Virus record (IMG/VR): IMGVR_UViG_3300003316_000399
Location: 1 to 64,000 of that record
From: a virus
Taxonomy: Duplodnaviria; Caudoviricetes
Reading direction: 5' to 3' (one strand)
Length of the DNA: 64,000 nt
Shown: positions 1 through 51,000 of the stretch, piece after piece
How positions within the stretch are numbered: position 1 is the stretch's first letter
Layout of the letters: each line of letters opens with the position of its first letter
Position numbers and translations under genes: made by a program
Notes under the pieces: generated by a model
Told to the model about the DNA's origin: nothing
The model's input: only the letters and a program-made list of their open reading frames with translations
Databases searched by the model: none

Positions 1-1329
1 CTAAGACGCCTCTTCCAGATCAACATATGCTTCATTGCTCTTGATCAAACCCTCCAGCTCATAGAAGATTTCAGATTTAGACTTTATAAATTCAACGCCG
101 CCGTCATTTGACTCGCAGCGCAATACAATACCCTCACGTATATGATTACCCAACTCATTCGCAGCATTAGTATAATATTTTACCATCTCACACATGCGAT
201 GATATGATTCTTCAGTTCCGTCGTAATACATTACTGTGTCGAGCGGCACAGGTGTTAAACCAAGTGATCGACAGGCTGCCACCATCTGAGACCATGATAA
301 ATCAAACGCATTACCATCAGGTCCCACCTGAGTGACGCGATATACAAACAGTTTTAATTCTCCAGGATCACAACCATACGTATATCGCATTGTATCGCCA
401 TAACGTTGCTTGAGACTAGGAAATTTATGCAGTGGTTGCGGCTCCATAATTAATTCTGTGCTATTATGATAACCTACCAGCTCATAATAAATCATCATTC
501 CTTTTGGTAACTTAATACCACGGAGAGAACTGGCACGAAATGTGTTATCCCCATAATATCCATTATATGGGTTCTTCATTACATCCTCTGCAGTACCGAG
601 GATAAGAGTGCGAGTCCCAATAATGTGTTTCCACACCATCGGAACATTATTAGCAATTCCTAGACATGATTGTAGCCATCGGACAAAGCGATTTTTAACG
701 TCGTTCAACAACGGCGCGTCAAATGGAATATTGCCAAAGCGCCCGCTTGTGCCATGCAGTTTGTGAGTGAATACAATCACACCAGGCTTAATCGCGCGTG
801 AATGTGCAAAGAAATGCTGACTCTTCACGTGATCAGGAAACATCGGGTGTGTAACACGCACGGCTTTGTATCGTGCTGCAATGGCTGCCAGGGTTGCTAG
901 TGTATGCCGCTTGCGAAAAATAGGGAAAAATTTCCCGTCATCTCGCTGCCATCCAGACCAGCTAAAATCATCTGCCGCGTTGCACCATTCACCCTGAGTA
1001 AGATTACGAGTTTGACAGTCATCAATGTAATCGAGATATTTTAATGGGCACCAAAATCCTGTGCTACGGACACCTCTGAAATTCTGTGCGCGAACACTTC
1101 CATTATCCTCAAAATAGCCACCTAAATCACGATAAAGCTTGTTAGCGGTGAGAAAATCTGCATGCAACTCTCCATCTGAGGGGAAAAAGATTCCTACATC
1201 ACCATCCTGTGTGTCAAGACTTACAATAACCGTCGCGCTTAATGTATCGTTGTTAGGCACCGCGATTTTGATGCGATCTGCATTTGGATGCTGACGTGTT
1301 ACTACGGATGTAATATATGCTTTGTACAT
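1..1329 (-). CDS. ATP-dependent RNA ligase (DRB0094/Rnl2-like) with N-terminal OB-like domain
   Basis: Nucleotidyltransferase motif I KLHGT, motif IV REGIVLR and motif V FIKSKS; N-terminal HPNADRI typical of the DRB0094 family; near Pnkp. Confidence 0.88.
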   Translation of the reverse strand: MYKAYITSVVTRQHPNADRIKIAVPNNDTLSATVIVSLDTQDGDVGIFFPSDGELHADFLTANKLYRDLGGYFEDNGSVRAQNFRGVRSTGFWCPLKYLDYIDDCQTRNLTQGEWCNAADDFSWSGWQRDDGKFFPIFRKRHTLATLAAIAARYKAVRVTHPMFPDHVKSQHFFAHSRAIKPGVIVFTHKLHGTSGRFGNIPFDAPLLNDVKNRFVRWLQSCLGIANNVPMVWKHIIGTRTLILGTAEDVMKNPYNGYYGDNTFRASSLRGIKLPKGMMIYYELVGYHNSTELIMEPQPLHKFPSLKQRYGDTMRYTYGCDPGELKLFVYRVTQVGPDGNAFDLSWSQMVAACRSLGLTPVPLDTVMYYDGTEESYHRMCEMVKYYTNAANELGNHIREGIVLRCESNDGGVEFIKSKSEIFYELEGLIKSNEAYVDLEEAS

Positions 1330-2923: not shown

Positions 2924-3832
2924 CTAAAAGTTCCCAGCAGCCACTTGACAACAACGAAGTCCAAGCGACCGCCACATATTCACAACACTATCCCGATCGT
3001 CAAAGACAAGCTTCACATCATACCACGGCTCAATACACCGACGGTAAATCTCTTCTTTTACAATGTGATCAGGTCGAAAATCATTAAACCCGCGCATGAA
3101 GAGTGATCGATATCCCCAGTCTTCATGACCATCCCATTCATAAATACCCGCGTTTTCCAGAGCTTGTTTAGTGTACCATCGCGCCTCGGCACGTCGGCCT
3201 GAGACAAGAATGATAGTGTGATCATTGATCCGATTGTACATATTGTAAAGATTGACAATCGGATCAATTGGCACATCGTCTAAAATTGCCTTCCCAAAGA
3301 AACCATCCCAATTCTTGGGAGATTGCTCAAGGAAATGCTTTCGATGTTCAATGTCAAACAACGTACCGTCGAGATCAAAAATAACTGCTGGGATCTTCTC
3401 ACTGCCGGGTGGAAGGGCAGGATATTTACCCGCGTCTTTGAACATCTTCTCAATGACACTAGCACCCACGGAATGTGTGCGTTTAGCATCTCGCTGGACA
3501 CATGTCTCAAAGTCCACGTGCCAGAAATCATGCTTTACTACAGTGTAATTATATTTCTCTGCTAGATTCTTCCATCTCTGGACTGTTCGAGGATTGGTGT
3601 TTGTGTTGTCGATGATTATATTCCAAATTCCATCCGCAAGCACGGCCTCAGCATAATCAAACATGTACTGCTGAACATACCGCTCATGCAATTCTGGATT
3701 CTTATAACGCAGCTCATCAGCATTCACGTATGCCCAAAATCCATCAGTAGGATTACCACTGTCCATCAATTGTTTACGGAATGTTGTTTTTCCTGAGGCG
3801 GGTGGTCCAATTAGGATACACATAATTGGCAT
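2924..3832 (-). CDS. pseT: polynucleotide 5'-kinase / 3'-phosphatase (T4 PseT-like)
   Basis: N-terminal P-loop GPPASGKTT and IIIDNTN; C-terminal HAD motifs FDLDGTL, LVSGR and VFDDR. Confidence 0.93.
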   Translation of the reverse strand: MPIMCILIGPPASGKTTFRKQLMDSGNPTDGFWAYVNADELRYKNPELHERYVQQYMFDYAEAVLADGIWNIIIDNTNTNPRTVQRWKNLAEKYNYTVVKHDFWHVDFETCVQRDAKRTHSVGASVIEKMFKDAGKYPALPPGSEKIPAVIFDLDGTLFDIEHRKHFLEQSPKNWDGFFGKAILDDVPIDPIVNLYNMYNRINDHTIILVSGRRAEARWYTKQALENAGIYEWDGHEDWGYRSLFMRGFNDFRPDHIVKEEIYRRCIEPWYDVKLVFDDRDSVVNMWRSLGLRCCQVAAGNF

Positions 3833-18116: not shown

Positions 18117-18248
18117 TACATATTTATCAGCACATATTTACTGACGCTATGCGGATTAAAATTGATAAAATCGAATAAGCTTCAGATATTTACCCACACG
18201 CCGAACAAACTTCTGCTTCATAAAACTTCTCCTATTAGTCCACAAAGC

Positions 18249-18566
18249 TCATAGCGCGCTCTCAATGATTACAAATTTACGAAGCAACTCGCGCTCGACA
18301 AAGCGCGGTAAAACACTTGTCGGATAATCAGTATCCCGGACCACCACACGATTAACAGATCCACCCGCGCCTGTAGGGAATTTAACCACAATAACACTTT
18401 GTATCTCGCGTGTAATAGGATCAATATATATTAGACGCCATCGGCGCTTTTCCCCCTCCGGTTGTAGCCGCGAAATTGTAATATAATCCAGAAGAATTGG
18501 TATGGTTAGATCATCACGCGGTAAATCATTGTCTGTTTCTGAACTGCTTATTTCTGGCGGGCACAT
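18249..18566 (-). CDS. hypothetical protein
   Basis: Last ORF of the amidoligase operon. Confidence 0.55.
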   Translation of the reverse strand: MCPPEISSSETDNDLPRDDLTIPILLDYITISRLQPEGEKRRWRLIYIDPITREIQSVIVVKFPTGAGGSVNRVVVRDTDYPTSVLPRFVERELLRKFVIIESAL

Positions 18567-18813
18567 TATTCTCCTCCTTGTATCCGAAATATTGATGTAG
18601 AATCTGTCGATACAGGGCTACTTGCGCCTCCAGATAAATAATGCGAGATTGCTGTTCGGTTAAAACACCATGATCCTGCAACGATTTTTCAATTAATTGA
18701 TTATGATGCTTACTCAGATTGTGTAGTGTAATGTGTGTTACTAGCCATCCAGACCAAGAAATTAATGACATAATCAACAACACTATAATTAAATCGTTTA
18801 TTACATTATTCAT
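18526..18813 (-). CDS. membrane-anchored coiled-coil protein
   Basis: N-terminal TM helix followed by a heptad-like segment. Confidence 0.55.
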   Translation of the reverse strand: MNNVINDLIIVLLIMSLISWSGWLVTHITLHNLSKHHNQLIEKSLQDHGVLTEQQSRIIYLEAQVALYRQILHQYFGYKEENNVPARNKQFRNRQ

Positions 18814-19657
18814 TAGATGACCATTCTTCTTCTCGATGAAAAAACGAAAATGTCGAAACAGGTGATGGATGCTTCATAACAGGGCGCCAAGGACTATTGT
18901 CGAGACGATTCCCAGCAATACGGACGATAGTAAACTCCCCAATGGCATCTATCATCAAATCATTCTTCTTCCGCGTATCTGGGGAAAATCTTTCTAGATT
19001 ATAATAATTCCAGACATTTGTTGTGTCAGCAAAAGTCAGCGCGTTCATAAGAATATTAGCGCTTGTGTTGAATAACCAAGTTCCATTAATATTCACACGA
19101 TACATTGGACGATTGCCGCGTATTACAATAAGTCCACGGCGATCCTGTAACATAAACGAGAATTCACTTGTTGATTCAAATTGATTAATCCAGGTATGAA
19201 TAATACTATCAGTAATAATTGGAGATCCAGAATGCAACATAATATATCGCAAAAGTAGCATTGCCTGATAACTATCTGTTTTAGGTTCGGTATCAAGCAG
19301 AGTATCATGTGTGAAATGATCAGAACGCACAAAGCCGTTGTGCGCTCCGACAAACATCCAATGACCGTTGGAATCTGTCATAATATATGGATGGTTATCA
19401 ACATGATCATCATTACGCAATCCACGCGACGCTGCACGTGTATGCAGCAACCAGCTAGAATTATGATCTAGTCGGGACAGCGGATTATATCCCGTATCGT
19501 CCACTGTTCTCGATGTTTTCCAAACCATATTACCATCAGAGATTCCGTATCCATCATTGTTACCCTCCGTCTCGGCGCCAGTTAGCATCAGCGCTGCAAA
19601 CATCCTTCGTAGATCTGGATTCATACCGCCATTTGTGATGGCCGCTAATCTGCACAT
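18806..19657 (-). CDS. class II (Ntn) glutamine amidotransferase
   Basis: N-terminal M-C nucleophile; DGYG, HTRAAS, HPY, AHNG and TDS motifs. Confidence 0.9.
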   Translation of the reverse strand: MCRLAAITNGGMNPDLRRMFAALMLTGAETEGNNDGYGISDGNMVWKTSRTVDDTGYNPLSRLDHNSSWLLHTRAASRGLRNDDHVDNHPYIMTDSNGHWMFVGAHNGFVRSDHFTHDTLLDTEPKTDSYQAMLLLRYIMLHSGSPIITDSIIHTWINQFESTSEFSFMLQDRRGLIVIRGNRPMYRVNINGTWLFNTSANILMNALTFADTTNVWNYYNLERFSPDTRKKNDLMIDAIGEFTIVRIAGNRLDNSPWRPVMKHPSPVSTFSFFHREEEWSSNE

Positions 19658-19695
19658 GCTTAACTCCTTTTTGCTGCTTCGTCTTGTGGTAAGAA

Positions 19696-20094
19696 TTAAA
19701 ATGAATAACCACCGGTATTAATGAATAATGGCAACCGGGAAAGCCGATTTTGTGCAACATCCGACATCTCGCTGCTATAGACAGGTACGTTGCCCCATGG
19801 AACCTTTATTGTGTACTGCGCGTCGGCTTCTCCGGTAATAGCGCACATTAGTACAGGAGTATAGTCAGAAGGCGGGCCGCTGTGTTTACAATTCGAGCAA
19901 ACCCATGTCGCAGATTTATTTGTGCGCTCTATTTCCATTCCTGGCTTAACCACCGCCCGACATACCGCCGGGCTAACTGCGCGAATAATATGCGTCATTG
20001 GATCGATCGATACAGTTTGCTCACTGTATACTGTCCATGCCCTGACAGTTATTTCAGTGAGCACTGCTTTGCAGGCACAACATCGGAATCCCAT
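19696..20094 (-). CDS. Cys-rich putative zinc-binding protein
   Basis: Probable start MGFRCCAC after AGAGAGG; CSNC and CAITG. Confidence 0.55.
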   Translation of the reverse strand: MGFRCCACKAVLTEITVRAWTVYSEQTVSIDPMTHIIRAVSPAVCRAVVKPGMEIERTNKSATWVCSNCKHSGPPSDYTPVLMCAITGEADAQYTIKVPWGNVPVYSSEMSDVAQNRLSRLPLFINTGGYSF

Positions 20095-20756
20095 TAAACA
20101 CCTCTCTTTTTCTGCTGGGGCTGGGGCTGCGATTGTACATATCCGCAGATGCTGCAAACACCAATCTGCGGCGGGATGGCTTTCAAGGAACAGTTGTGGC
20201 AATAAGCATTCAAGTCACTTAACCGACTCTCAACAAAATCAATTAACTCTGACAAAGAACCCTGGCGCATTACGCCAACATTACCGCTCATGATTCTATT
20301 GATCGTGTTAACAGAATTGCCTAGATCAGATCGTCCAATAACTGGAATCTGATTACGTATGAACTGCCGCACCGATCCACTAATCGATCTAGTAAACCAT
20401 TGAGACATTACCACGGGATTAATGATCTTCCACTCACTAGCCTCTAGTGCAGATACATCTGAATCGGGCAATGAACAGATAAAGCGCATATAAATAGTAA
20501 TAACATCGCGCGGGAAACTGCTTCCAGCTACAAAATTCCTCATCTGCTCTTCGCTATATACTGTAAAATCATGATCTCGCGTAACATAATCTTCGTTGTT
20601 CACGCGGCTCACATACCAGGCCTGTTCAAGCGGAACGCGTAGTGAGAAGTACTTTTTTTCTAGAGATGTCATGTCTTTACTGATTGCGAAATATCTAACA
20701 AACTGCTTAACGCGCGATTCTATCGCGCTTCGGTCTGCTGAGTTTAATGTAATCAC
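20094..20756 (-). CDS. hypothetical protein with C-terminal zinc ribbon
   Basis: CHNC...CSICG near the C-terminus. Confidence 0.65.
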   Translation of the reverse strand: MITLNSADRSAIESRVKQFVRYFAISKDMTSLEKKYFSLRVPLEQAWYVSRVNNEDYVTRDHDFTVYSEEQMRNFVAGSSFPRDVITIYMRFICSLPDSDVSALEASEWKIINPVVMSQWFTRSISGSVRQFIRNQIPVIGRSDLGNSVNTINRIMSGNVGVMRQGSLSELIDFVESRLSDLNAYCHNCSLKAIPPQIGVCSICGYVQSQPQPQQKKRGV

Positions 20757-20764
20757 AATCCCTC

Positions 20765-21805
20765 CTAAATCGCAATCACGCGATTGTTTGATTCATTTGA
20801 CATCTGTGAAAAATTAAGCAGTGCAGAAATCGATGCAGATAATCCATTATGATCAACTGCCTGGATCATATCTCGCAAAAACGAAAGACAACGATTAGAA
20901 TCGTGATCGTTAATCGCGCGTTGACACTCAAGTATTACAGGAACATTGCCTAATAAGTCCAGCAGATAGTCGCGTCGATTATCTGCTGGTAGCTGTTGAA
21001 TATAATTAGCCACAGCTTGTGCAGCTGTAAACACTGCAGTTGTCATCTCCGGCGACGTTAACAACACTGCGTTTGGGGGAGTACGATATTCCAGACGGCC
21101 ATTACTTGGCTCCTCACAACGAATCCATCCGGCCTTGCCATAAAGTGCTTTGCGCTCACGAGCCTCTGCTGAAGCATCAATCCAAGTAGAAAAACATCCG
21201 ATAATGCGATCGAGAAACGCGACAAACAGCTGTCGCATAGGACGCTCAATAATTAGATTACGGATATTGCCGAAATGGATATGTCCTCCGCCCGTTCTGT
21301 ATAGGTATGTTGATGCCTCTGGTCTCTCAGCCTCGTCACCATAAACAGATACATCGGGTCGGCAACCAAACGCCTGAAGTGAGAACTTATTAGCCGCGTC
21401 GCGAGGAAAACGATTGACTGGAAGATCCTGCACAAACCAAGGATGTACAGGCACTCTTGGCGCTGCGGAGAGGACAACATCAAAATCTGGTAACTTAGAA
21501 CACACAATATTGCGGGCATCGTGCAGATTTACCCACACACGGCTAGAAAGTGCCTTCGGATCATTCGTTGGCGTTACTGTAAATTCGAGGGCGAGGCCAT
21601 CACCCTCTAGATAACCATGTGACAATAGGTAATGCAATCTATCATCACAACCGAGCGCGTAGTATGCTGGGAGATATGTAGGACACTCTACTGGAAATCT
21701 CACAGCTTTGTTCACCGCGCGAGCCAGGACAAAAAATTCAGGATCTGTACCTAGAGTTGTTGGTCCATCAATCATTGCTATCCCCCTGTGGTTGAAACGC
21801 ACCAC
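20765..21805 (-). CDS. phiEco32-like COOH-NH2 ligase type 2 (glutamine-synthetase/GCS fold)
   Basis: LGTDPEFF, DGLALEF, FGCRPD, GGGHIHFG, R+xLYGKAG and LEYRTP motifs. Confidence 0.9.
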   Translation of the reverse strand: MVRFNHRGIAMIDGPTTLGTDPEFFVLARAVNKAVRFPVECPTYLPAYYALGCDDRLHYLLSHGYLEGDGLALEFTVTPTNDPKALSSRVWVNLHDARNIVCSKLPDFDVVLSAAPRVPVHPWFVQDLPVNRFPRDAANKFSLQAFGCRPDVSVYGDEAERPEASTYLYRTGGGHIHFGNIRNLIIERPMRQLFVAFLDRIIGCFSTWIDASAEARERKALYGKAGWIRCEEPSNGRLEYRTPPNAVLLTSPEMTTAVFTAAQAVANYIQQLPADNRRDYLLDLLGNVPVILECQRAINDHDSNRCLSFLRDMIQAVDHNGLSASISALLNFSQMSNESNNRVIAI

Positions 21806-21832
21806 AATTGTGAAAGATTTTGACTTGCCTAT

Positions 21833-21861
21833 AGTATACCACAGATATACATGTGATGCAA
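21833..21861 (-). promoter_or_regulatory. sigma70-type promoter internal to the amidoligase cluster
   Basis: TTGCAT-17nt-TATACT with TGTGG extended -10. Confidence 0.75.
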
Positions 21862-21894
21862 GTGATTGTCAAGTAATTGTCAAGTAATTGTCAA
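21856..21894 (-). repeat. 11-bp tandem repeat of -35-like boxes
   Basis: Minus strand reads TTGACAATTAC TTGACAATTAC TTGACAATCAC TTGCAT. Confidence 0.9.
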
Positions 21895-21909
21895 ACGATA
21901 TTTACATCA

Positions 21910-23541
21910 TTAAACTAACGTCAACTCCCTGGATTTCGCATCTTGTTGCTTGCATTGTTGTAACAATGACACAAGCTTATTAATAGTGATATCAAAATTA
22001 GTGTGTTTGTTGTCTACCCAAACAGGCTGATGCCAAATTGGACGGCACCCCAGCCATTTAATATGAAAATCAAGTCTGTTCTTCCTCACAGTACTCTGAA
22101 ACACATTTACCACGCGTCGAGCAGCGGGTGATAAGATGAGAATCTCTTTGTCCGGTTCCAGAGCTTGCAATTTATCAAGATTTAGCTGTTCATCAAACTC
22201 TGCCACCGACACGGATGTAATTGAATCAAATATACTGCGCCACGAGGGAAATAATTCGATCTCATGTCCATTAAGATTGTACCACGTTTCAAACATAAGT
22301 AATTCATTACACATTGGACGAAATACTTTATTCAGTCTGCGCCACACATTTTGATATGTGTGGAGACCAATATATGGACCATTGTGCTTAACCACATGCA
22401 TACCAGAATATTTATTATTGTAACGTCCTATTGCGCTCACGCTCCTGTCGCGCGCGTCGCTTGCGTTCCCGTTTACTAATACGTCTATCTCCCGGCCATC
22501 CACCAGCGTGATCTTCGTTGTCTGATTGCTCTTCGGTGCCGATATTACAGGTGTCGCTGGTGCCGGGAGTAACATCAATTGTTGCTCTGGCTTCCCAATA
22601 CCTTTGTATACTGTCCCATTCGTCGATGTCCCATTCATCTCCTGGGCCATCTCGATTGGCTCCGCAGTTCTGGCACCATCGTCCGTACCAAACATCACTG
22701 CCACAGTGCCAGCAGAATCTGGCCTCCATCCCGCGCTGCTCGGTGTGGCGGGGCGCTGCAGCGCGGGCTCTTTTTTTTCGTGATAGTATGGATTCAGAAT
22801 GATATCGACACGATAACTATCTGGCTCGGCTTGTCCCGGTCTAAATCGCAGCACATCTCCAACACCAAGCTCAATCATCGCGCCGCACGAGATGCCGTAA
22901 TGCATCTGTAGTAGTTGTGATACACGCGTCACAATTTTTGTAGATGTGTTAATAAACCATCCGTCATCGCCAATTGGCAAAATATTTAATGGCTTTTCCG
23001 GCCCACGCAGAGCCCAAACATCACCCGATACTTGATCCGTGATCAGAGTACTAAATGTTGATCCAGTAGTATATCGACCTAACCATTCCTGGAAAACGTC
23101 GGAATTGATTTCACTCCTCTGACTAAGCAACGCGAATAAATCCTGAAATGCTCGATAACTATCAGTATCAGGCACATCTGTTGCTCTATCGGTAGCCTTT
23201 GTTCCGTAAAAGGTACCGTTATGCGCCATTACTAATCCTCCAAGATCCGATTTAAATTGGTATGGATGTGCTTCTAGAACTGTTTTACCAGTATTATAAC
23301 TCGCACTTCTTACATGCGAGCAGAGCGAATATGTGTCTCTGCTTCCCTCAACAAACACATCCCAAAACGATTCCAAGTTTGATTCTAGGTATGAGCCAGA
23401 ACATTTATTAATCAGATCACTGGTCCATGCACCATATCCATGAACATTGTTCTCCGACGCACCAAGAATCATGGCGTAATCCATGATCGCGGTTTTTGTT
23501 CCTAGTGGAATGCTGCCTAACACGGCGCATAGTCTACACAT
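21910..23541 (-). CDS. class II glutamine amidotransferase with long C-terminal extension
   Basis: True start MCRLCAV at 23541 (GAGGAGG RBS) gives the Cys1 nucleophile; HGYG, HVRSAS, HPY, AHNGT and TDS motifs. Confidence 0.88.
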   Translation of the reverse strand: MCRLCAVLGSIPLGTKTAIMDYAMILGASENNVHGYGAWTSDLINKCSGSYLESNLESFWDVFVEGSRDTYSLCSHVRSASYNTGKTVLEAHPYQFKSDLGGLVMAHNGTFYGTKATDRATDVPDTDSYRAFQDLFALLSQRSEINSDVFQEWLGRYTTGSTFSTLITDQVSGDVWALRGPEKPLNILPIGDDGWFINTSTKIVTRVSQLLQMHYGISCGAMIELGVGDVLRFRPGQAEPDSYRVDIILNPYYHEKKEPALQRPATPSSAGWRPDSAGTVAVMFGTDDGARTAEPIEMAQEMNGTSTNGTVYKGIGKPEQQLMLLPAPATPVISAPKSNQTTKITLVDGREIDVLVNGNASDARDRSVSAIGRYNNKYSGMHVVKHNGPYIGLHTYQNVWRRLNKVFRPMCNELLMFETWYNLNGHEIELFPSWRSIFDSITSVSVAEFDEQLNLDKLQALEPDKEILILSPAARRVVNVFQSTVRKNRLDFHIKWLGCRPIWHQPVWVDNKHTNFDITINKLVSLLQQCKQQDAKSRELTLV

Positions 23542-24847
23542 CCTCATCCTCCTCAAAATAAGCTTCATCTTCGTCATAGCTACTGAGCTGAGATGTATCA
23601 GTAAGTCCAAGATCATGTCCATACATTTCTAAAGAATGAGATACTGTGTATTGATTTTGTAATGTCTGATTCTCTCGAAGTTCTGGTACGATCACCGCAC
23701 CAGAAACCAAAAAATTAGATGGGAGATTAAATATTTCAGATATCGGGTTCGACGCAGCGGAAGATTCTCGAACCGGCGGTGTAGCCTTTTTTGATGATCG
23801 GTACAGGGAAAAATCATCAGTATCGTCATCCTTATGATTATAATTATCAGACACCCTCACCACTGGACGTTCCGAAATCAGTGGTGAGTTCCAACTACCG
23901 CTGTAATGACTCTGTCTATAAATATCAACAACACCAGGTTGCCAATCTGAACCCCAAATTGATCTCAAATCTACACCCAATATATCTGAGATTTCAGATA
24001 CATTAATCTCGGGTTTTGATCCCAAGAGAAAAGGGGATTTAAAAATATCCTGTGGACGGCGATGCTGTGCAATATTATGAACAGCACAAATAAGCTGAAA
24101 GAAATGATTCATTTTATCATACACGCCGTCGAATAGGCGCCATTCAAACGATCCTTGGCGCAGTACAGAATATAAATTCACGCCCATAAGTCTGTGCGGA
24201 ACATAATGTGGCATACGCTGCTCGGATAGAAAGAACATATCCAGACGACCCCACGAAGCAAGAAATTCACTCGCGCTATTAGCTCTTAGGAGTCGATCAA
24301 TATCTACTAATGGTCTCCTGTTAATACAAATACTCGCAGACAGTGGACGGCAATACATATAATCAACCGGTGAGCCGCGACTTGTACGTGCTCCTCGATG
24401 CACGCGGCCAGCCGAAGAACATCGATACAAAATCGCTTCCAGATAATAACACCACGCTAGAAGATTTTGAACATACCTCCAGGATTGATCTGACACATCT
24501 ACATGAAAATGAATAGATGCGCGCGGCGTCTGTGGTGTATTGCGGAGGAAGAGTGACATCTTTTGTGTAAATAGATGCATCTCCTCATAAGACGCGACAT
24601 CAGTAATTACCTCCAGACCAATTCTCTCTGCTTCGCGGACACCTGTCGGTAGAATTTTTCCATTTTTCGTTGATATAGGAATAATGGTTAAATTATCAAC
24701 AGAAAATACTGGATTTCTGATAGAACCATCGTCGCCAAGACGACAACGAATAATACCAAAGTCATTAATATTATCAAGGAGTGTTCGACCAGCTCCCTCG
24801 ATTTCAATCTCCAGTCCGTATCGCACTGGTCCATTATTGTTGTACAC
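23534..24847 (-). CDS. putative amidoligase (Amidoligase_2 / COOH-NH2 ligase family)
   Basis: YGLEIEIE, DDGSIR, LEVIT, SIHFHVD and FEWRLFDG motifs; acidic C-terminal tail. Confidence 0.85.
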   Translation of the reverse strand: MYNNNGPVRYGLEIEIEGAGRTLLDNINDFGIIRCRLGDDGSIRNPVFSVDNLTIIPISTKNGKILPTGVREAERIGLEVITDVASYEEMHLFTQKMSLFLRNTPQTPRASIHFHVDVSDQSWRYVQNLLAWCYYLEAILYRCSSAGRVHRGARTSRGSPVDYMYCRPLSASICINRRPLVDIDRLLRANSASEFLASWGRLDMFFLSEQRMPHYVPHRLMGVNLYSVLRQGSFEWRLFDGVYDKMNHFFQLICAVHNIAQHRRPQDIFKSPFLLGSKPEINVSEISDILGVDLRSIWGSDWQPGVVDIYRQSHYSGSWNSPLISERPVVRVSDNYNHKDDDTDDFSLYRSSKKATPPVRESSAASNPISEIFNLPSNFLVSGAVIVPELRENQTLQNQYTVSHSLEMYGHDLGLTDTSQLSSYDEDEAYFEEDEDV

Positions 24848-24849
24848 AG

Positions 24850-25584
24850 TTATTCCATCTCTACTGCAGAGAAATCTGCAGGGATTTGAAACGCGATTGA
24901 TGCGCTCTGTGACATATTCATACGAGAATGAAGCGATCTTGTTACAAAATTACTCACAAAATAGTCAAACAGCGCGCGATGGCCCATTAGTTCTGGATGC
25001 CATTGCACCGTTAACGCATCGTCGTAGATCAAACCCTCTACTACATTGTCAGTTGAACATCGTGCAATGACTCTGGCATTTTGTGGAACTACATTCACCG
25101 CCTGATGGTGTAGGGAGTTAACACGGTTCCGTATTCCCAGCATTGCCGCTATAAAACCTTCATCCCCTGTACACATTACATCATGCCTTCCGTCATGGTC
25201 TGTACCTGCCTCATCCAGATCCTGGTACAGATTGCCACCGCGCAACGCTGCCAAGAGTTGATGGCCGCGACAGATTCCCATAATCGGAATACCAAGCTCT
25301 TCTGCAACTTTAACTTGCAATATCTCTCTAGCATCCCGAAAATCATTAAACCATGACCGTCGATTCTCTTGATTATAAATCTTTGGATTAATATCCGCCC
25401 CGCCTTCTAGAAGGAGAAAGCATGGTTTGTCAAGATACGCCGACATTGTGGCTCGGATATAATCCTCGTCGTGTGACGCCGTGTCAATGTGTACAATATG
25501 AGGAAAGTTAAAAGTCATACAGCCATTATTGGAGTCGAAAATATAAATTGGGGTTGTCATTAGAAAATGCTCCTTATTCAACAA
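24850..25584 (-). CDS. peptidase C26 / gamma-glutamyl hydrolase (class I amidotransferase, PuuD-like)
   Basis: GGADI, GICRGHQ (catalytic Cys), LYQD, VNSLHHQ and QWHPE. Confidence 0.92.
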   Translation of the reverse strand: MLNKEHFLMTTPIYIFDSNNGCMTFNFPHIVHIDTASHDEDYIRATMSAYLDKPCFLLLEGGADINPKIYNQENRRSWFNDFRDAREILQVKVAEELGIPIMGICRGHQLLAALRGGNLYQDLDEAGTDHDGRHDVMCTGDEGFIAAMLGIRNRVNSLHHQAVNVVPQNARVIARCSTDNVVEGLIYDDALTVQWHPELMGHRALFDYFVSNFVTRSLHSRMNMSQSASIAFQIPADFSAVEME

Positions 25585-26350
25585 ACTCTCGAAAGGCTGA
25601 TTTATAAAGATCGTACAGAGTTGGTGTTCGTAAAGCTGGGGCAGTATTTATCTCTAGAATATACATTGCACGATTACCGTCGCTATCCAGAACTAGCATC
25701 AAATCCACCGCTCCGAAATCACAACCTACAGCAGCTACAGCGCGGATTGACATGTCAACAGCTTCTGCATGTCGTGATTCGCGCAAACCCATTGTATTAG
25801 TACTCAACTCAAATGTACATCCGCCTTGTGCGTAATTATGAATAGGTGTGTGACAATTATTAGGAATAATTTTTTGTTGCTGTGCGAGTACGCGGCCTTG
25901 AAAAACATGGATTCGGTATTCTCGATGTACATTCAAAAGCGGTGTGTAAAAATCCGCATTGGGAATCTCACCGTCGGCCTCGCAGATCTGAATACCATCT
26001 CCACCGGATAACCCATCTCGCCGTGCCAAAAAACGCGTTGCGTTGAATCGCTGGCACAACGCCTGAATATTAGATGAATTTGTGGTAAACGGTGGACATC
26101 TAATATTAGCGTCCGTAAATGCCCGAAATGAACGTCGCTTGGACACAGCGACGTTAATGTTTCTATTTAAGATATTACGACCTTGTACATCGCGTAATGT
26201 TGTAAAATCCGACCGGCATCCCCAATTCACACAAATACTCATTCGATGATTGCCGGGCTTTGATCTAAAACGCGGAAGAGACGCCCATGAAACATCTAAT
26301 TCACGCGCCATTCTTCGCAGCGCGTTTGATCTATTGTATAGTAGGAACAT
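25574..26350 (-). CDS. ATP-grasp peptide ligase (RimK/YheCD-like)
   Basis: VNWG, GGDGI, EYRIHVF, DFGAVD and LEINTAP. Confidence 0.9.
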   Translation of the reverse strand: MFLLYNRSNALRRMARELDVSWASLPRFRSKPGNHRMSICVNWGCRSDFTTLRDVQGRNILNRNINVAVSKRRSFRAFTDANIRCPPFTTNSSNIQALCQRFNATRFLARRDGLSGGDGIQICEADGEIPNADFYTPLLNVHREYRIHVFQGRVLAQQQKIIPNNCHTPIHNYAQGGCTFELSTNTMGLRESRHAEAVDMSIRAVAAVGCDFGAVDLMLVLDSDGNRAMYILEINTAPALRTPTLYDLYKSAFREFVE

Positions 26351-27437
26351 TTAATTCTCTTTCAACATGACACAACCAATTTCTTATAATTTCACAAAAC
26401 TGAGTTTTAAACAAACTGTTGCTAGTTGCAATAAAATAGTCAACACACCGCGTGTGGTCTTGCACGATTCCAATATTCAAAATCTCTTGGACAAAAGATT
26501 TAAAATCCTCCATTCCTGAAGATTTAGCACGATACATAATATTGTATACAAATTCTAAGAGCTGCTCGACAAGATTCATAAAAACTTTACTACGCATTGC
26601 ATATGTGATGCGCGAATCGATGCTCAAAAGCGGAATCTCGGAACGGAGTCCATCCATGATCCCATGTTCAGCTAGAATTAAAGTTGCATCCATTGAATGC
26701 CATTCTTCTTCCCATACACTCCAATAATACTGAAAATAAGGACTTGATGAGAGATAATTAAAATAATTCAAATCAGTGTTAATACTGCCCAATACATTAA
26801 ACCAATCATTATTTGAACACACAATATTTATAAGAGCGCGATATGCTGGCACAATCCACCAATACGCCTTTATAGCATTATCAAATGATGCATAAATAGA
26901 TATATTATATCGATCACCGGAGATCTTAAACAAGGATTCATTAACATCTTTGTGCATATGTCCAGTGATTGAGTAAATATTGTCAATGCGGCTTTTGAAC
27001 AACGAGAAACTGTGTTGTAAGAACGCATTGAATACTTCGGGCGGCAAAATGTGAGTTACTTCAAAAGATATATCAAACACCACATCTCCTATATCCGCAG
27101 GGCTATAGGAACGGTAATTATGATTCTCGGCAGAAAACATTCTGAATAATTGCTTGGTATCATTATGATTAACTACAGAATCAGCCACCTGCAAAGCAAA
27201 ACCCGTAAGGCTTAAACCATCATTACTGTAATGACTTAAAAAATTCAGATCATAAGCAGTATCAAGTTTATACGTAATATTATTGAGAAAATTATCAGCT
27301 GTATAAACTGAAGATTTCGCGCCATCCTGTAAATCGCTGTCGATCGCGCGTAGAGCAAGCTCACGACAGCTGAGGTTATCTCTCTGAAAAATACATTTTC
27401 CGAATGTGTTTTTAATAGAGAGTGAATAGTTTACCAT
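26331..27437 (-). CDS. uncharacterised protein of the amidoligase operon (CRE motif)
   Basis: 368-aa ORF overlapping the ATP-grasp start; DNLSCREL. Confidence 0.75.
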   Translation of the reverse strand: MVNYSLSIKNTFGKCIFQRDNLSCRELALRAIDSDLQDGAKSSVYTADNFLNNITYKLDTAYDLNFLSHYSNDGLSLTGFALQVADSVVNHNDTKQLFRMFSAENHNYRSYSPADIGDVVFDISFEVTHILPPEVFNAFLQHSFSLFKSRIDNIYSITGHMHKDVNESLFKISGDRYNISIYASFDNAIKAYWWIVPAYRALINIVCSNNDWFNVLGSINTDLNYFNYLSSSPYFQYYWSVWEEEWHSMDATLILAEHGIMDGLRSEIPLLSIDSRITYAMRSKVFMNLVEQLLEFVYNIMYRAKSSGMEDFKSFVQEILNIGIVQDHTRCVDYFIATSNSLFKTQFCEIIRNWLCHVERELNVPTIQ

Positions 27438-27465
27438 CGATCGGCTCCCTCTCGTCTATTTCGAT

Positions 27466-28356
27466 CTACAGATAGAGACCCGCGCGCATCAAAGGTTTTA
27501 TCTCCGTATCATATTCAGAGAAATAGCTATCCCAATAATCCATTTCATCAAATACATAGAACCATCTTTTCATAAAAGGACGATCGCTGAGCCACAAACC
27601 CATAGACCCATCTCCGTACATATATAACATTGGATCGATGTTTGTGTCTAGCCCAGAGGACCACCGAGCTAATCTCGCGGTCCATGCAGTGACGTGCCGT
27701 TCTGCATCACATGGTAGATACCACAATGATCCGGTTTGTGTATAACTTTTCATCAATTCCAAGATATTTGTGAGCGGCGGGGAATTAGAGCTTGATATTG
27801 AATTACTGTAATCTGCCAGACGCACGTACAAAATTGACCACAACGCACAATCATAAGCATCGATACCGCTGAAACGAAATTGATAAATGTTGGAGTTTGG
27901 ATTAGAGTTTGGGCTAAAAATATCATCACTACCAGTGTTCTCTACAGAAACAGAGGATTTAAAATAACTGTTTACAAAATGTGGTAGATTATCATTTGCT
28001 ACTGTGTTACTAACAGCGCTGGTAAATTTTACAGTAAAATCATATGTATAAAATTTCTTCATCACATAATACATCAATAACATATCCGACATTGTAATGG
28101 AAGTACTATTAGTATACGCGTAATAATAGTCATAAGCGTCTTGGTTTACAAGATCAGCCTTAAGCCTGTCCACAGCCTTTTTCAACTCTGGACTCTGTTT
28201 AATCGCAAACTGAGTTGCGCAGAACAACCTATTAATACCTGCAATATTTTGCGACATTACTTCTCGACATACAAGATCAGAAAAATGAAACGACTGGCAG
28301 ATTGATCCATTCTGCATATCAATCAAACGAATGGTAGCAGAAAAATTCCTTGGCAT
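27466..28356 (-). CDS. uncharacterised protein of the amidoligase operon (CRE motif)
   Basis: 296-aa first gene of the operon; SDLVCREV; GGAGG RBS. Confidence 0.75.
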   Translation of the reverse strand: MPRNFSATIRLIDMQNGSICQSFHFSDLVCREVMSQNIAGINRLFCATQFAIKQSPELKKAVDRLKADLVNQDAYDYYYAYTNSTSITMSDMLLMYYVMKKFYTYDFTVKFTSAVSNTVANDNLPHFVNSYFKSSVSVENTGSDDIFSPNSNPNSNIYQFRFSGIDAYDCALWSILYVRLADYSNSISSSNSPPLTNILELMKSYTQTGSLWYLPCDAERHVTAWTARLARWSSGLDTNIDPMLYMYGDGSMGLWLSDRPFMKRWFYVFDEMDYWDSYFSEYDTEIKPLMRAGLYL

Positions 28357-28400
28357 TTCTAGCCTCCTCTGTACGACCCGCCGTTCGTAAACATACGTGT

Positions 28401-28445
28401 ATTATACATCAGACACATATATAATGCAAACTATATGCAAACTAT
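28401..28445 (-). promoter_or_regulatory. sigma70-type promoter with duplicated -35 (11-bp repeat)
   Basis: TTGCAT-17nt-TATAAT; plus-strand ATGCAAACTAT occurs twice, at 28424-28434 and 28435-28445. Confidence 0.8.
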
Positions 28446-28462: not shown

Positions 28463-28507
28463 AAAAAGAAAACCTTCAGATAAAGAATTACATCTGAAGG
28501 TTTTCTT
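28463..28507 (-). terminator. intrinsic terminator
   Basis: 16-bp inverted repeat AAGAAAACCTTCAGAT/ATCTGAAGGTTTTCTT ending in a T run. Confidence 0.8.
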
Positions 28508-28528: not shown

Positions 28529-29491
28529 TTAAAATATATTAGTTTTATATGACCATTGAGACATTGGATAAGAAATATATTCTGCAGAAATAGAGATAAT
28601 ATTTTTATCCGCAAACGCAACGCGGCAGATCCAGCCGCCGAGATCGCATACTAATCTCTTCTTACGCATAAACGGTGTCTGCTCTTGTGTTGTTGCTGTC
28701 TGTATCAGCCAAACACCACGATAGTTTGGCACAAACGATGCTTTGTGATAATGACCATATGCAAGAATCTGAGGCAATTCCTCAGATCGATAACCATCAA
28801 TGATCTTCTGCCCTGTATACGATAATGAATAAGCAGAACCTCCTCCGGGATGGAGTACACGAAGTATACCAGCTCGATTTTCCCGATCGATGTACACATC
28901 GCGTTCCATGTACCCAAGATATACTAAGTCATTTCTCCCCTCGCGAATGGCTTTTGATTCAACATATTCACCAATGACGATGCCTTCTCGCTGAGTGTAC
29001 CACCCCTCATGATCGTCACCATCAATATAATATGTTGTAATTCCTTCGCGCTGAGGGTATGTGCGAACGAAATAGGCAGCCTGATTATCAAGACCATGTA
29101 CGTGAACATCGTGCATATTATATTTACTCTCACCATCAATATAATTACCAGTGTGAAACACTGAACACACGCCTGCTCGGGAGAAACGATCATATAGATC
29201 ATTTAACATATCAATTCGCTCATAGTTAGAGCAAAGATGAGTATCACCGAGCAAGCCAATAACCACTTCGCGTTCTACTGAGGGGGTGTTATTTATTTCG
29301 ACAGCATTTCTTCCGATTTGTCTCCGATATCGACGAACGGCGGACCGTAATTGCTCACTGGAAATAGAGGTTTTCCAATGTGATGATAATTCTTGTGCAG
29401 ACCGAGACCATGCTCCTGCATCATCAATAGCGCGTTGATCATCGTAAACTGAAATTGCATATTCTATTTTGTTTTTATCCCACACAATCAT
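28529..29491 (-). CDS. calcineurin-like metallophosphoesterase with N-terminal helical/HTH-like region
   Basis: GDTH, HTGNYIDG, GDDHE, LHPGGG and GHYH motifs. Confidence 0.85.
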   Translation of the reverse strand: MIVWDKNKIEYAISVYDDQRAIDDAGAWSRSAQELSSHWKTSISSEQLRSAVRRYRRQIGRNAVEINNTPSVEREVVIGLLGDTHLCSNYERIDMLNDLYDRFSRAGVCSVFHTGNYIDGESKYNMHDVHVHGLDNQAAYFVRTYPQREGITTYYIDGDDHEGWYTQREGIVIGEYVESKAIREGRNDLVYLGYMERDVYIDRENRAGILRVLHPGGGSAYSLSYTGQKIIDGYRSEELPQILAYGHYHKASFVPNYRGVWLIQTATTQEQTPFMRKKRLVCDLGGWICRVAFADKNIISISAEYISYPMSQWSYKTNIF

Positions 29492-29512: not shown

Positions 29513-30004
29513 TTACGGTTGTAAACTAACAATTTTTCCATCTTTTATACGAATAAAATAAATAGATTTGTTTTTCAGGCTGCGTGCGTAATTGATACAG
29601 TTTGCAGTTCCTCCACTTGTGCCATCCCAAACCGCGACTAGCATATCAGCATGATCAACCATAAATTTATTACGAATCTGCATCTTTTCTGCTGAATAAC
29701 CTCCATCACTCACTACAATAACTGAAGATGCTTCTTTCAAAAGATCTCTATAATGATTTTGACTCTGTGCAGGCCATCGGCTTTCCTGACCAACAAAAGG
29801 AATGGCTGCGATATATGGAATTTTACACTCAAGACATATCTCTGCAGCAATGGTATCAACACCTAATGCCATTCCGGTGATAATATAATCTGGTTTATAG
29901 GTTAAAAATATATTTTTAATCACAGCGCGTAGAGAGGTTATTAGTAATGTTTCTCCGTAACCACCTAATTTATTCGGCCTGTGTCCGGTAAATGCAATAA
30001 TCAT
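29513..30004 (-). CDS. SLOG/YspA (DUF1273) family protein
   Basis: AFTGHRP, TGMALGVD, RNKFMVD and WDGTSGGTANC. Confidence 0.9.
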   Translation of the reverse strand: MIIAFTGHRPNKLGGYGETLLITSLRAVIKNIFLTYKPDYIITGMALGVDTIAAEICLECKIPYIAAIPFVGQESRWPAQSQNHYRDLLKEASSVIVVSDGGYSAEKMQIRNKFMVDHADMLVAVWDGTSGGTANCINYARSLKNKSIYFIRIKDGKIVSLQP

Positions 30005-48099: not shown

Positions 48100-51000
48100 C
48101 TAAACTTGTCTATCCCTTAATGATCTTCCTGCTTTTAATCCTTGACCACCAGTGCTTTGCGCCTTACCAACACTAGCTCCTGGTGAAACAATATTACCCG
48201 GTTTACCATTTATCATTGCTTTCGCAGCACTGCCACCTTGATTAGCTTGTCCATTTACAATTATCTGCAGGGCAATCGGAGTAGCTGCTAGTAACGCAGC
48301 GAGATCAAATTTTCCTAACGCGGCTGCCGCAGTTCCAAGAGCTGTGGAAAAACTCGATATAGATTTTACATCTAGATTTTCTTTAGCAAAAGTTGACATA
48401 CGCACCGCAGCTGTTGCCGACACTTTTGCTAACATACCGAGTTCATTGTTCGATTGATTTGCTCTCTGTCCTAAATCTTGTAAACTATTTTTAACTGGCT
48501 TGCTACTGTTAGATAAATCTTCTAACCAACCTCGTCCACCGCCACCACCGCCACCACCTGACCGTTGCGCGGCTTGCTCCCGCATTGCGATGCTTTTAGC
48601 ATCTATTCGCTTTGATGTATTAACATCTCGATAGCTATATAAATCATATTCTTCTTCAATATTTCGAGGTGGTGCTGGCATTGAAGGTCTAAGATTTTCT
48701 AAAGCTTCATCGATAAATGGTAGATCTGGCTCAGTGATAACACGACCTGGAGTTCCTGGTGTTGGGTATCCCATTGGAGCCGCACCCGGCATAATAGTAT
48801 TACCAAGCGCAGCGAGATTTGGCGCCTCTTTTGTTGAACCTTGCTGACCTTGTAGAATTGCTTCTGCCAGCTGTTTAGCAAAGTCCATAGTTACCATGCC
48901 CTCTTTGCCCATTTCTGGAGATACATAGTTTACACTACCAGTTTCTTTTCCTCCTGCATTATAATAATCCCACACGGTTGGTGCGCGGTAATTTCCTGGC
49001 AAGTTATAGTGACCGCGTAACTGATCATTGCTTTCCGTATTCTCGTCTATTGCCATGCGCAAATACTCTTGACTTAAACCTGTTTGCATAAGTAAATCGT
49101 TATTCTTGCGCATGATCAATAAGCGTTCATCACTGTATTTCTCAGCTAAATCCGGTGCTAGATTTACAGCCTGGCTTTGTAGCTGTTGCGCGCGCTGAAT
49201 AATTTTTTGTGTTTGCTCAGGAGTATATTCAGAAAGATCAACGGTTTCCGGTGCTTTCAGTTGTTGTCGTTTCTGTTGTTGCTGTTGCAAATATTCATTC
49301 ACAAAACCCTGATTTATTCCAGCAACTGATTTATAAGAATCTCCGCTGCTCATCAGAAACTGCTGTTTTGAAAACTCATTACCCCAGGCCGGAAACATAC
49401 TTGTTAGATCACTTTGCTTTTGCCGTGCGTAATCCAACGCGGCGGATAAATCCTCAGTTTTATAATCTGAAACATCAAAAATATTAGGCGCTTGGAATTG
49501 TGCCGGTGTCCCTGCGATAACAGTTGTTTTCCTTGCGTCTTTTTGTGATTTGATCAAACCTAACGATTTCATAAGTGTATCTGGCTCTTGCTTAACCATT
49601 GCCAGGTATGCACGATATTCTACAGCAAGCATCTGCCGCGCCTGTAGCTGCTTTTGAACCGCGTCGTAACTTTGCGTTGCTTTAGTATGTTCTTCACTGG
49701 AGGTATCTATATATTCCGGCGTCTTTGCAATAGCAGTTGCCTGTTCTTGTAATGCGCTATATTCCTCCATAAAATTCTGCATCTCAACAAGTTGGGAAAG
49801 CTGTTGCTGGAACTCATTTTGACCTTCAGAGCCAATCTGATATAGCATCTTGTTCATGCCGGAAGTATCTTGACCAAGTTTTCTAGCAAGAGGATCAGCA
49901 ATCGCTAATGTATTTGGCAAAGCTTCCAATGAAGATCTTGCAGTTTGGTACTGTGACATTACATCTTCAGCTGCCTGACCAGTAATACGACCTGAACTTA
50001 TGTCGTTAAACTTGCTACTAAATACAGTGTTTAAACGCTGTGTTTGTCGTCCAAACGTGCCAAACTCAGTTAAGCCTGTTGGTACTTTATAGGTGTATTG
50101 TGATAACTCCCGCATATCGGACATCTTTGTTCTAATAGAATCAAGTGTTTCATTGATTCCACCAAAAATATCGCGCCCTTTTGACGTTTCTGAATTCTGA
50201 CTCTGCTGCAAATCGCGTATGGCTTGCTGGACTTGCTCTTGTTCTTTGATCTTTGCAGTAATTTCAGTATTCTCATCTTTTGCCTGCGTGAGCAGGTTAA
50301 GAAATTCTTTAGGATCTGATATACCAGAGTTCTGATAAAGTGATTTAAGATCGGGAGAACCCTCTAGCTTATTATAAAAATTCTCTACATTACCCAATGC
50401 ACCAACCCGGTAATTTGCTAAGAAAAAGTTATCTTGTATCGAGGAAGGATCACCGGCATTGGCAATCAGTCTTTCGTAATTCTTTAAATTCTCGGATGAC
50501 ACGGCAGTACTTGGTCCTGAAATTGGTGATTGTGAAAGAATTTCCTTTAATGCGTCGGCTTGCTCATAGACATTTTCTATACCGCCGGTTGATTTTGCCT
50601 CGGCATAAGCTGATGCGAATTTCTCTTGTTCCCGTCCACTAGTGCCCAAAAATGTTCCATATACATCAAAATACTCTGATACACCTTTACCAATCATATA
50701 TCCAACTTGGGCACCAAGAGGACCTCCAACAAATGCACCTGCAAACCCACCCGCAATACCGGCTCCAACATTCATCATATTCTCGCCACTAAAACCCCCC
50801 ATTGCAACATCCATACCGATGGGTAAAGCGAGATCTCCAAGTGTTCTACCAGTTTGTCCTAGAATTTTACCTGCTCTGGTATTCATGAAACCAGATACAC
50901 CAACTGCAGTTGGTTTGTCAGTCACACCTTTTAGAAAACTGTTTACTGCACCTAATCCCTGAACATTTGCAGTAGCAATTTTACCAACCTCAGCAACCTG

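Follow-up and report, generated by a model that had tools for sequence, protein, structure and literature searches.

A phage amidoligase cassette was reportedly predicted by Iyer, Abhiman, Burroughs and Aravind in 2009 (Mol Biosyst 5:1636). Later papers credit the prediction to that work (PMC4431377, PMC10580990), and the cassette has been described in LUZ24-like, phiEco32-like, PA11-like and RIO-1-like podoviruses (PMC3890496, PMC3517423, PMC6209634, PMC5498523). It has been named a 'peptidoglycan modification cassette', with its product still treated as unknown (PMC5498523). Papers up to 2025 call its function hypothetical (PMC10580990, PMC11706807), and our literature search found no experimental paper on cassette function. 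Here we analyse a 64,000-nucleotide stretch (the window), positions 1 to 64,000 of the IMG/VR virus record IMGVR_UViG_3300003316_000399 (Duplodnaviria; Caudoviricetes). It carries a tightly packed 12-gene operon, g1 to g12, on the minus strand at 28356-18249 (Table 1). The operon is very probably a member of this cassette family, in a lineage-specific, expanded variant of the phiEco32/LUZ24/Zobellviridae form. An earlier interpretation of the same letters (the sequence-only reading) had related it to the phiEco32 and PaP3/LUZ24 cassettes, as ligase homology confirmed; its statement that no product is established agrees with the literature above.

The cassettes of phiEco32 and LUZ24/PaP3 (Kuravirus, Bruynoghevirus) share with the operon a COOH-NH2 ligase, an Amidoligase_2 enzyme, a RimK-like ATP-grasp ligase and a long class-II glutamine amidotransferase (GATase-II) of the N-terminal nucleophile (Ntn) type, with direct homology for the ligases, and they are likewise seated among early/replication genes. 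They differ in having a gamma-glutamyl cyclotransferase (GGCT) and no Peptidase_C26 enzyme (C26), and in having a single GATase-II, with a C-terminal domain unrelated to that of g6. They also have neither a zinc-ribbon protein of the g9 type nor a member of the family that we call CRE. They reside in podoviruses of 45-79 kb, whereas the record studied here exceeds 91 kb and encodes a 2830-aa tape measure. The cassettes of Zobellviridae (Pseudomonas PA11, O4 and TC6; Citrobacter CVT22; marine PQ867842) resemble the operon in having C26 rather than GGCT, the long GATase-II, the COOH-NH2 ligase, Amidoligase_2 and the ATP-grasp ligase, with a ~300-aa protein of no assigned function before C26. They differ in gene order and in lacking the second, short GATase-II and the g9-type zinc ribbon. 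Their ~300-aa leader had no CRE relationship detectable by hhalign, and their ~180-aa post-ligase protein is unrelated to g8.

Gamma-glutamyl 'add and remove' pathways include PuuA/PuuD (putrescine), EgtA/EgtC (ergothioneine) and BtrJ/BtrG (butirosin). The operon would follow the same logic, in which a glutamine synthetase (GS)-like or ATP-grasp ligase adds a gamma-glutamyl amide and a C26, Ntn GATase-II or GGCT enzyme removes it. It differs from these pathways in having no orthology to them and none of their other enzymes. Our best explanation, to which we assign a probability of roughly 55%, is that the operon is an expanded cassette running an ATP-driven add-and-trim gamma-glutamyl/isopeptide pathway on an amine-bearing acceptor. 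The new points are, first, that an eight-family gene set is conserved in a lineage of long-tailed phages and includes a second GATase-II, a zinc-ribbon partner and the CRE family and, second, that C26 and GGCT are complementary.

Three ligases and three amidohydrolases

The ATP-grasp protein g3 matched phrog_2599 at 7.5e-29. Its E-x-N Mg site aligned with that of Ddl; matches to MptN, RimK and Ddl were weak. It is homologous to PaP3 orf43 (BLASTP, 3e-14) and to the Zobellviridae ATP-grasp proteins. For g7, PF14395 gave 48.4 bits (cut-off, 25; 41.1 bits in the whole-genome search) and phrog_3815 matched at 1.2e-21. The g5 protein was below Pfam reporting; PF12224 was found in 12 of the 15 proteins most similar to it (32-43% identity), and phrog_7469 matched at 7.5e-5. 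The g7 motifs DPE, EF, GGHIH and EYR have the same pattern as those of g5 and were invariant in the alignment, as were GxExE, HxH and ExR in the g5 family. PaP3 and Zobellviridae phages carry homologues of the operon's ligases, and COOH-NH2 ligase homologues were present in 162-179 phage records. For g5, neither tblastn against phage records nor a single-protein scan of IMG/VR gave any match.

The g5 protein ends in a disordered, acidic tail of ~90 aa. Both the window's Amidoligase_2 (23534-23800) and that of the related contig L008 (6750-7296; see below) have a long, disordered C-terminus containing acidic runs (EEDEDV; DPEDSEDDDNDD), which is missing from the orthologues in contigs L002 and L003.

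The g4 protein belongs to Peptidase_C26 (PF07722, 112.7 bits, 2.8e-32). Its Cys-His-Glu triad lies in GICRGHQ (Cys) and WHPE (His-Glu), and GICRG and WHPE aligned to Lin1909 and PuuD. The nearest solved chains, Lin1909 (4e-17), 7d4r and PuuD (4.7e-11), are gamma-glutamyl-amide hydrolases that stand alone; amidotransferase subunits matched at 1e-5 or worse. The protein scored below the NCBIfam PuuD equivalog cut-off. We classify g4 as a putative gamma-glutamyl-amide hydrolase of the PuuD-like family, not as an ortholog of PuuD.

Both g6 and g10 begin with MCRL, and their Pfam scores (19.5 and 21.4 bits) were just under the cut-off of 23. In the AlphaFold2 (AF2) model of g6 (pLDDT 78.5), residues 2-250 matched PurF (Z 24.8), GlmS (Z 23.9) and EgtC (Z 22.4). 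The protein consists of an Ntn domain (1-250), a disordered linker (262-338) and a conserved helical C-domain (390-540) that is confident in the model; whole-model fold searches matched through the Ntn domain only. Cys2, Arg74, Asn107-Gly108 and Asp128 were invariant across eight sequences. The g10 protein has the size of YafJ/EgtC-like enzymes, and tblastn found no match to it in cultured-phage records. The duplication of class-II GATase proposed in the sequence-only reading is thus represented by g6 and g10.

This GATase-II family is small: a set of 1.8 billion proteins yielded 114 representatives, some long and some short, of which 94 start with MCR. One C-domain is common to 56 of the 59 long forms, and the family hidden Markov model (HMM) covers g6 residues 1-514. 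The window's GATases formed a clade separate from the podovirus cassette GATases (support, 100/100). The tree did not resolve the branching of short and long forms and so gave no age for the duplication.

The predicted catalytic motifs were intact in all three ligases and all three amidohydrolases, which are of the Cys-nucleophile type. The components that the earlier reading had listed, including these three ligases and three amidohydrolase domains, were all present on the minus strand where it had placed them.

Conservation across related genomes

Two IMG/VR contigs, L002 and L003, have a block of DNA polymerase, recombinase, nuclease and phosphoesterase genes in common with the window (42-49% identity). 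Immediately after this block come C26, Amidoligase_2, the long GATase-II, the COOH-NH2 ligase, a ~220-aa protein, the zinc ribbon and the short GATase-II (26-39% identity). The ATP-grasp gene is within the cassette in L002 and ~11 kb off in the complete genome behind L003 (G002). The same families, in shuffled order, were found in L008 (LDIY01000049.1), a 22-kb contig binned with a 'candidate division TM6' metagenome-assembled genome (MAG). L008 is probably either a phage contig that was binned with this MAG or part of a phage or prophage of the TM6 organism itself. Besides the whole cassette, with CRE present as five tandem paralogues, it has one more gene in common with L003.

A set of eight families (ATP-grasp, C26, Amidoligase_2, long and short GATase-II, COOH-NH2 ligase, zinc ribbon and CRE), equal to nine genes of the window operon, was present in four of four genomes (G000, G001, G002 and the L008 contig) at 26-49% identity. 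A lack of co-conservation would, by its own terms, have refuted the sequence-only reading; these four genomes keep the whole set. A search for related loci with alignment A5 returned only the same two contigs, and a metagenome scan with alignment A1 gave 219 pattern hits, none of which was confirmed. The membrane-anchored g11 and the 105-aa g12 were not conserved and are probably not core members of the cassette.

Interchange of C26 and GGCT

No GGCT (PF06094, PF13772) was found in G000, G001, G002 (100% complete) or G003. C26 without GGCT was seen in eight records of two lineages: the window lineage, including L008, and Zobellviridae (three records). In PaP3 the searches found GGCT but not C26; the annotations of Paul and LAh_8 list GGCT and, within the cassette region, no C26. 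The swap spans five lineages, two with C26 and three with GGCT.

The sequence-only reading had correctly noted that GGCT is not recognisable here. It had presented both this absence and the presence of C26 as unusual, which is not supported: C26 is regular in Zobellviridae cassettes (O4, CVT22, PQ867842), and the absence of GGCT accompanies C26 in every record tested. The identity of the cassette, the three-plus-three enzyme set and the co-conservation were supported; these two points were not.

C26 (PuuD), EgtC-type Ntn enzymes and GGCT have the recognition of gamma-glutamyl amides in common. GGCT can only cleave such amides; it cannot release ammonia. Because C26 is replaced elsewhere by GGCT, which makes no ammonia, trimming is favoured over ammonia supply as the activity of C26. 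The comparison argues that C26 would trim gamma-glutamyl amides rather than feed ammonia to a ligase, and C26 appears to occupy the role of GGCT in the window cassette, as in Zobellviridae.

This bears directly on the main alternative, glutamine-dependent amidation. Each GATase would then be the glutaminase subunit of one ligase, delivering ammonia to its acyl-phosphate, and up to three carboxylates would be amidated, for example D-glutamate or meso-diaminopimelate (mDAP) of a peptidoglycan precursor, as by MurT/GatD or AsnB-type enzymes. The equal numbers of ligases and GATase-type enzymes (three each) agree with this, as do the intact glutaminase residues. The long GATase-II gene directly follows Amidoligase_2 in the window, L002, L003, PaP3 and UFV-P2, and the conserved extra helical domain of its product could dock on a partner. 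However, C26 resembles amidotransferase subunits less closely than it does stand-alone hydrolases of the PuuD type, and its slot is filled in other lineages by an enzyme incapable of making ammonia. The short GATase-II, moreover, is a stand-alone protein of EgtC/YafJ size, encoded three genes downstream of the nearest ligase, and Pfam, NCBIfam and PHROG found no Mur-ligase/AsnB synthetase domain in the operon proteins. We consider amidation unlikely.

A predicted add-and-trim pathway

For the add-and-trim mechanism itself we see about an even chance. In the infected cytoplasm, Amidoligase_2, the COOH-NH2 ligase and the RimK-like ATP-grasp enzyme would each activate a carboxylate with ATP, most likely the gamma-carboxyl of glutamate or of a terminal Glu. 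Each would join the carboxylate to an amine, so that a short gamma-glutamyl/isopeptide-linked compound or tag would be built stepwise. Known ligases of the GS superfamily (GS, GCS2, PuuA, GmaS) activate the gamma-carboxyl of glutamate. We infer the glutamate donor from the superfamily because neither GS-like family of the operon has a solved or characterised sequence relative.

The PuuD-like C26 and the two EgtC/YafJ-like Ntn enzymes would then cut gamma-glutamyl amide bonds. In this scheme glutamate may be added transiently, for activation or protection, or trimming may shorten an over-extended product; EgtA/EgtC, PuuA/PuuD and BtrJ/BtrG offer parallels. The zinc-ribbon and CRE proteins would be variant-specific partners, probably a scaffold, a specificity factor or the acceptor; the classical guess for the acceptor is a cell-wall precursor peptide. 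The 'writers plus erasers' proposal of the sequence-only reading fits the evidence; its suggested use in superinfection exclusion or anti-defence is speculative.

Several points weigh against an add-and-trim pathway. No solved or characterised relative was found by sequence for Amidoligase_2 or for the COOH-NH2 ligase, and the activities of the phage cassette enzymes are predicted from their sequences. Three of the four expanded loci come from one phage lineage, so that their co-conservation partly reflects inheritance. The complementarity of C26 and GGCT is based on five lineages only, and PSA-HP1 was reported with GGCT together with a 'glutamine amidotransferase' of unstated class (PMC5498523). 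The long GATase-II adjoins a ligase in most cassettes, an arrangement that fits an ammonia-channelling pair equally well.

CRE and zinc-ribbon proteins

The founder of the CRE family, g1, defines three motifs, MPxxF, sCRE/D and WWxxLxxR. Cys30-Arg31, Trp173, Leu176 and Arg179 were invariant, and Pro2 was present in seven of the eight members. By phmmer and HMM searches, relatives of g1 were found at L003:8404-9270 (288 aa) and L002:18444-19028 (194 aa) and as the five tandem paralogues in L008. CRE copies lie directly upstream of C26 in L003 and L008. BLAST showed no significant paralogy between g1 and g2, although g2 scored 13.9 bits on the CRE HMM with its CRE and WW..R motifs in register, against 7.6 bits for the best of 1000 shuffles. 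Its match to the family by hhalign was weak (E 0.015). We tentatively regard g2 as a divergent second member, in line with the two CRE proteins that the earlier reading had named.

No match to CRE was found in Pfam, PHROGs, NCBIfam or the ESM Atlas, and a profile search of a 5.8-billion-protein set returned the query's own members only. The genomes have one to five copies with the cassette and none elsewhere in those records. As judged from these searches, CRE is a previously unnamed, often multi-copy family that occurs only with this cassette variant. The AF2 model of g1 was poor (pLDDT 48.7, from an eight-row alignment). The G+C content of g1, g2 and g11 is 0.35-0.39, as against 0.41-0.48 in the operon's enzyme genes.

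The position of g8 after the COOH-NH2 ligase is conserved and its sequence barely so; hhalign found it unrelated to podovirus post-ligase proteins. The g9 protein is a four-Cys zinc ribbon in which C5, C8, C66, C69 and C84 are invariant, with homologues in L002, L003 and L008 (5e-12 to 2e-5). Neither a CxxC nor a pooled-phmmer homologue of g9 was found among the checked small accessory proteins of PaP3 and Zobellviridae cassettes. The two zinc-ribbon proteins with CxxC pairs and the N-terminally anchored 95-aa protein of the sequence-only reading were both recovered. A LysW-type amino-group carrier was considered for g8 and g9 and rejected: despite the zinc ribbon, their C-termini are neither conserved nor acidic, and there is no conserved Glu tail.

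These proteins would take a central place if the cassette carried out reversible protein tagging, in which the ligases would attach Glu or a peptide tail to a protein of phage or host origin (compare RimK on S6), the hydrolases would erase it, and CRE or zinc-ribbon proteins would be acceptors or adaptors. The RimK-like nature of the ATP-grasp ligase, the acidic disordered tails on Amidoligase_2 of the window and L008, and a cassette-linked, multi-copy, fast-evolving CRE family with an invariant Cys-Arg are consistent with tagging. Yet the zinc-ribbon proteins have no conserved C-terminal Glu or acidic tail and are thus not LysW-like, podovirus cassettes keep all the ligases and have no CRE, and the known characterised GS-like ligases work on small molecules. 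Protein tagging seems less likely than the add-and-trim pathway, and quite improbable overall.

A related and doubtful possibility is that CRE defines the target of the cassette, either as phage-encoded acceptor/scaffold proteins or as a new thiol enzyme, to which the three ligases would attach a gamma-glutamyl/peptide modification that the three hydrolases would trim off. If true, this would point to a protein- or carrier-based phage biosynthetic system, not a free-metabolite or cell-wall pathway.

Operon structure and genome context

Every gene between 16 and 64 kb of the window is on the minus strand. Within the operon, adjacent genes overlap or are separated by 2-38 nt, except at a single 134-nt gap before g7, and AGGAG-type ribosome sites precede most of the genes. 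As the sequence-only reading had described, the operon is a promoter-led unit of ~10 kb insulated upstream by a terminator. The terminator lies 29 nt past the metallophosphoesterase stop codon. Its hairpin, with a stem of 9 bp (CCTTCAGAT/ATCTGAAGG) and a 10-nt loop, is followed by a T-run and was missed by a consensus scan because of that loop. In promoter P1, the TTGCAT -35 box is duplicated at 11-bp spacing (28440-28424), with a 17-nt spacer to the -10 TATAAT, and g1 is preceded by a strong AGGAGG Shine-Dalgarno sequence. Promoter P2 consists of three perfect TTGACA boxes and a TTGCAT, exactly 11 bp apart, with a 17-nt spacer and TATACT.

Start codons were revised for g6 (to MCRL) and g9, and the start of g7 is probably at 21775 (Table 1). 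No terminator was found 3' of g12. Between g12 and the next promoter lies a basic mini-open reading frame (ORF) of 20 codons (MKQKFVRRVGKYLKLIRFYQF; 18159-18221, minus strand) with its own AGGAG site, and 3' of it is the strong promoter of the next unit (TTGACA-17-TATACT, 18116-18088).

Table 1. Signals and genes of the operon and selected genes of its surroundings, in window coordinates.
Feature	Position	Strand	Length (aa)	Assignment and evidence
Tape-measure ORF	48100-56592	-	2830	PF10145 domain, 38 bits
YpsA/SLOG-family protein	29513-30004	-		65 bits; directly upstream, together with the metallophosphoesterase
Metallophosphoesterase	28529-29491	-		Immediate upstream neighbour; position kept in L002 and L003 at 42-49% identity
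Intrinsic terminator	28463-28500	-		Ends upstream replication/recombination unit; direct sequence reading
Operon promoter P1	28401-28445	-		TTGCAT-17-TATAAT at 28429-28401
g1	27466-28356	-	296	CRE family founder; phmmer/HMM matches in related loci
g2	26331-27437	-	368	Tentative CRE member; family HMM
g3	25574-26350	-	258	RimK-like ATP-grasp carboxylate-amine ligase; phrog_2599
g4	24850-25560	-	236	Peptidase_C26/class-I GATase fold, PuuD-like; PF07722
g5	23534-24847	-	437	Amidoligase_2 (GS-like carboxylate-amine ligase); PF12224-bearing homologues
g6	21910-23541	-	543	Long class-II (Ntn) GATase; AF2 fold matches, family HMM
Internal promoter P2	21833-21894	-		Inside 134-nt gap before g7
g7	20765-21775	-	336	phiEco32-type COOH-NH2 ligase type 2 (GS-like); PF14395
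g8	20094-20756	-	220	C-terminal CxxC...CxxC protein; position-conserved after COOH-NH2 ligase
g9	19696-20094	-	132	Cassette-specific zinc-ribbon protein; homologues in L002, L003, L008
g10	18806-19657	-	283	Short stand-alone class-II (Ntn) GATase; MCRL start, catalytic residues
g11	18526-18813	-	95	N-terminal hydrophobic anchor; without counterpart in related loci
g12	18249-18566	-	105	Without counterpart in related loci

At 91.6 kb, the IMG/VR record is estimated to be ~53% complete. A near-DNA search against phages gave no match and no close cultured relative, and most structural genes matched nothing in PHROGs or Pfam. The 2830-aa ORF matched no PHROG, and tblastn against 50,697 phage records likewise gave nothing. 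No sheath protein was found in the record; given this and the PF10145 tape measure, the phage is long-tailed, as had been claimed. If the ORF is a true ruler, it implies an unusually long tail.

The operon is transcriptionally 3' of a replication/recombination block that runs in the order DnaB-like helicase, primase, DNA polymerase A, UvsX-like recombinase, PD-(D/E)XK nuclease, YpsA-SLOG protein and metallophosphoesterase. In this novel tape-measure-bearing phage, the early/middle replication genes and the cassette are transcribed together. A metallophosphoesterase is also listed alongside amidoligase and GATase in OM43 and Poseidoniales viruses (PMC10580990, PMC11706807). Downstream of the cassette lies a tRNA operon, and past it are an RNA ligase (1-1329, minus strand) and a T4-type polynucleotide kinase (2924-3832, minus strand), which look like a tRNA-repair module.

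In every lineage the cassette stands beside DNA polymerase, primase/helicase or recombinase genes, which is what would be expected if it served DNA or nucleotide hypermodification by decorating a modified base with an amino-acid-derived group. However, a ThyA-like pyrimidine hydroxymethylase (PF00303) was absent from G000, G001, G002, PaP3 and PQ867842, three of which are complete records, and Pfam, PHROG and NCBIfam found no nucleic-acid-binding or glycosylase domain in the operon proteins. Hypermodification is, in our view, very improbable, and less likely than the add-and-trim gamma-glutamyl pathway.

Significance of the expanded cassette

This variant alone reveals neither the product nor the biological role of the cassette. 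Hundreds of phages that infect Escherichia, Pseudomonas, Vibrio, Aeromonas and marine bacteria carry the cassette, which is among the oldest unsolved sets of phage auxiliary enzymes. The variant offers three experimental handles. One is its fully paired 3:3 set of ligases and hydrolases. Another is the zinc-ribbon and CRE proteins, which may bind the substrate or be the substrate. The third is the interchange of C26 and GGCT, which narrows the chemistry to the cleavage of gamma-glutamyl amides.

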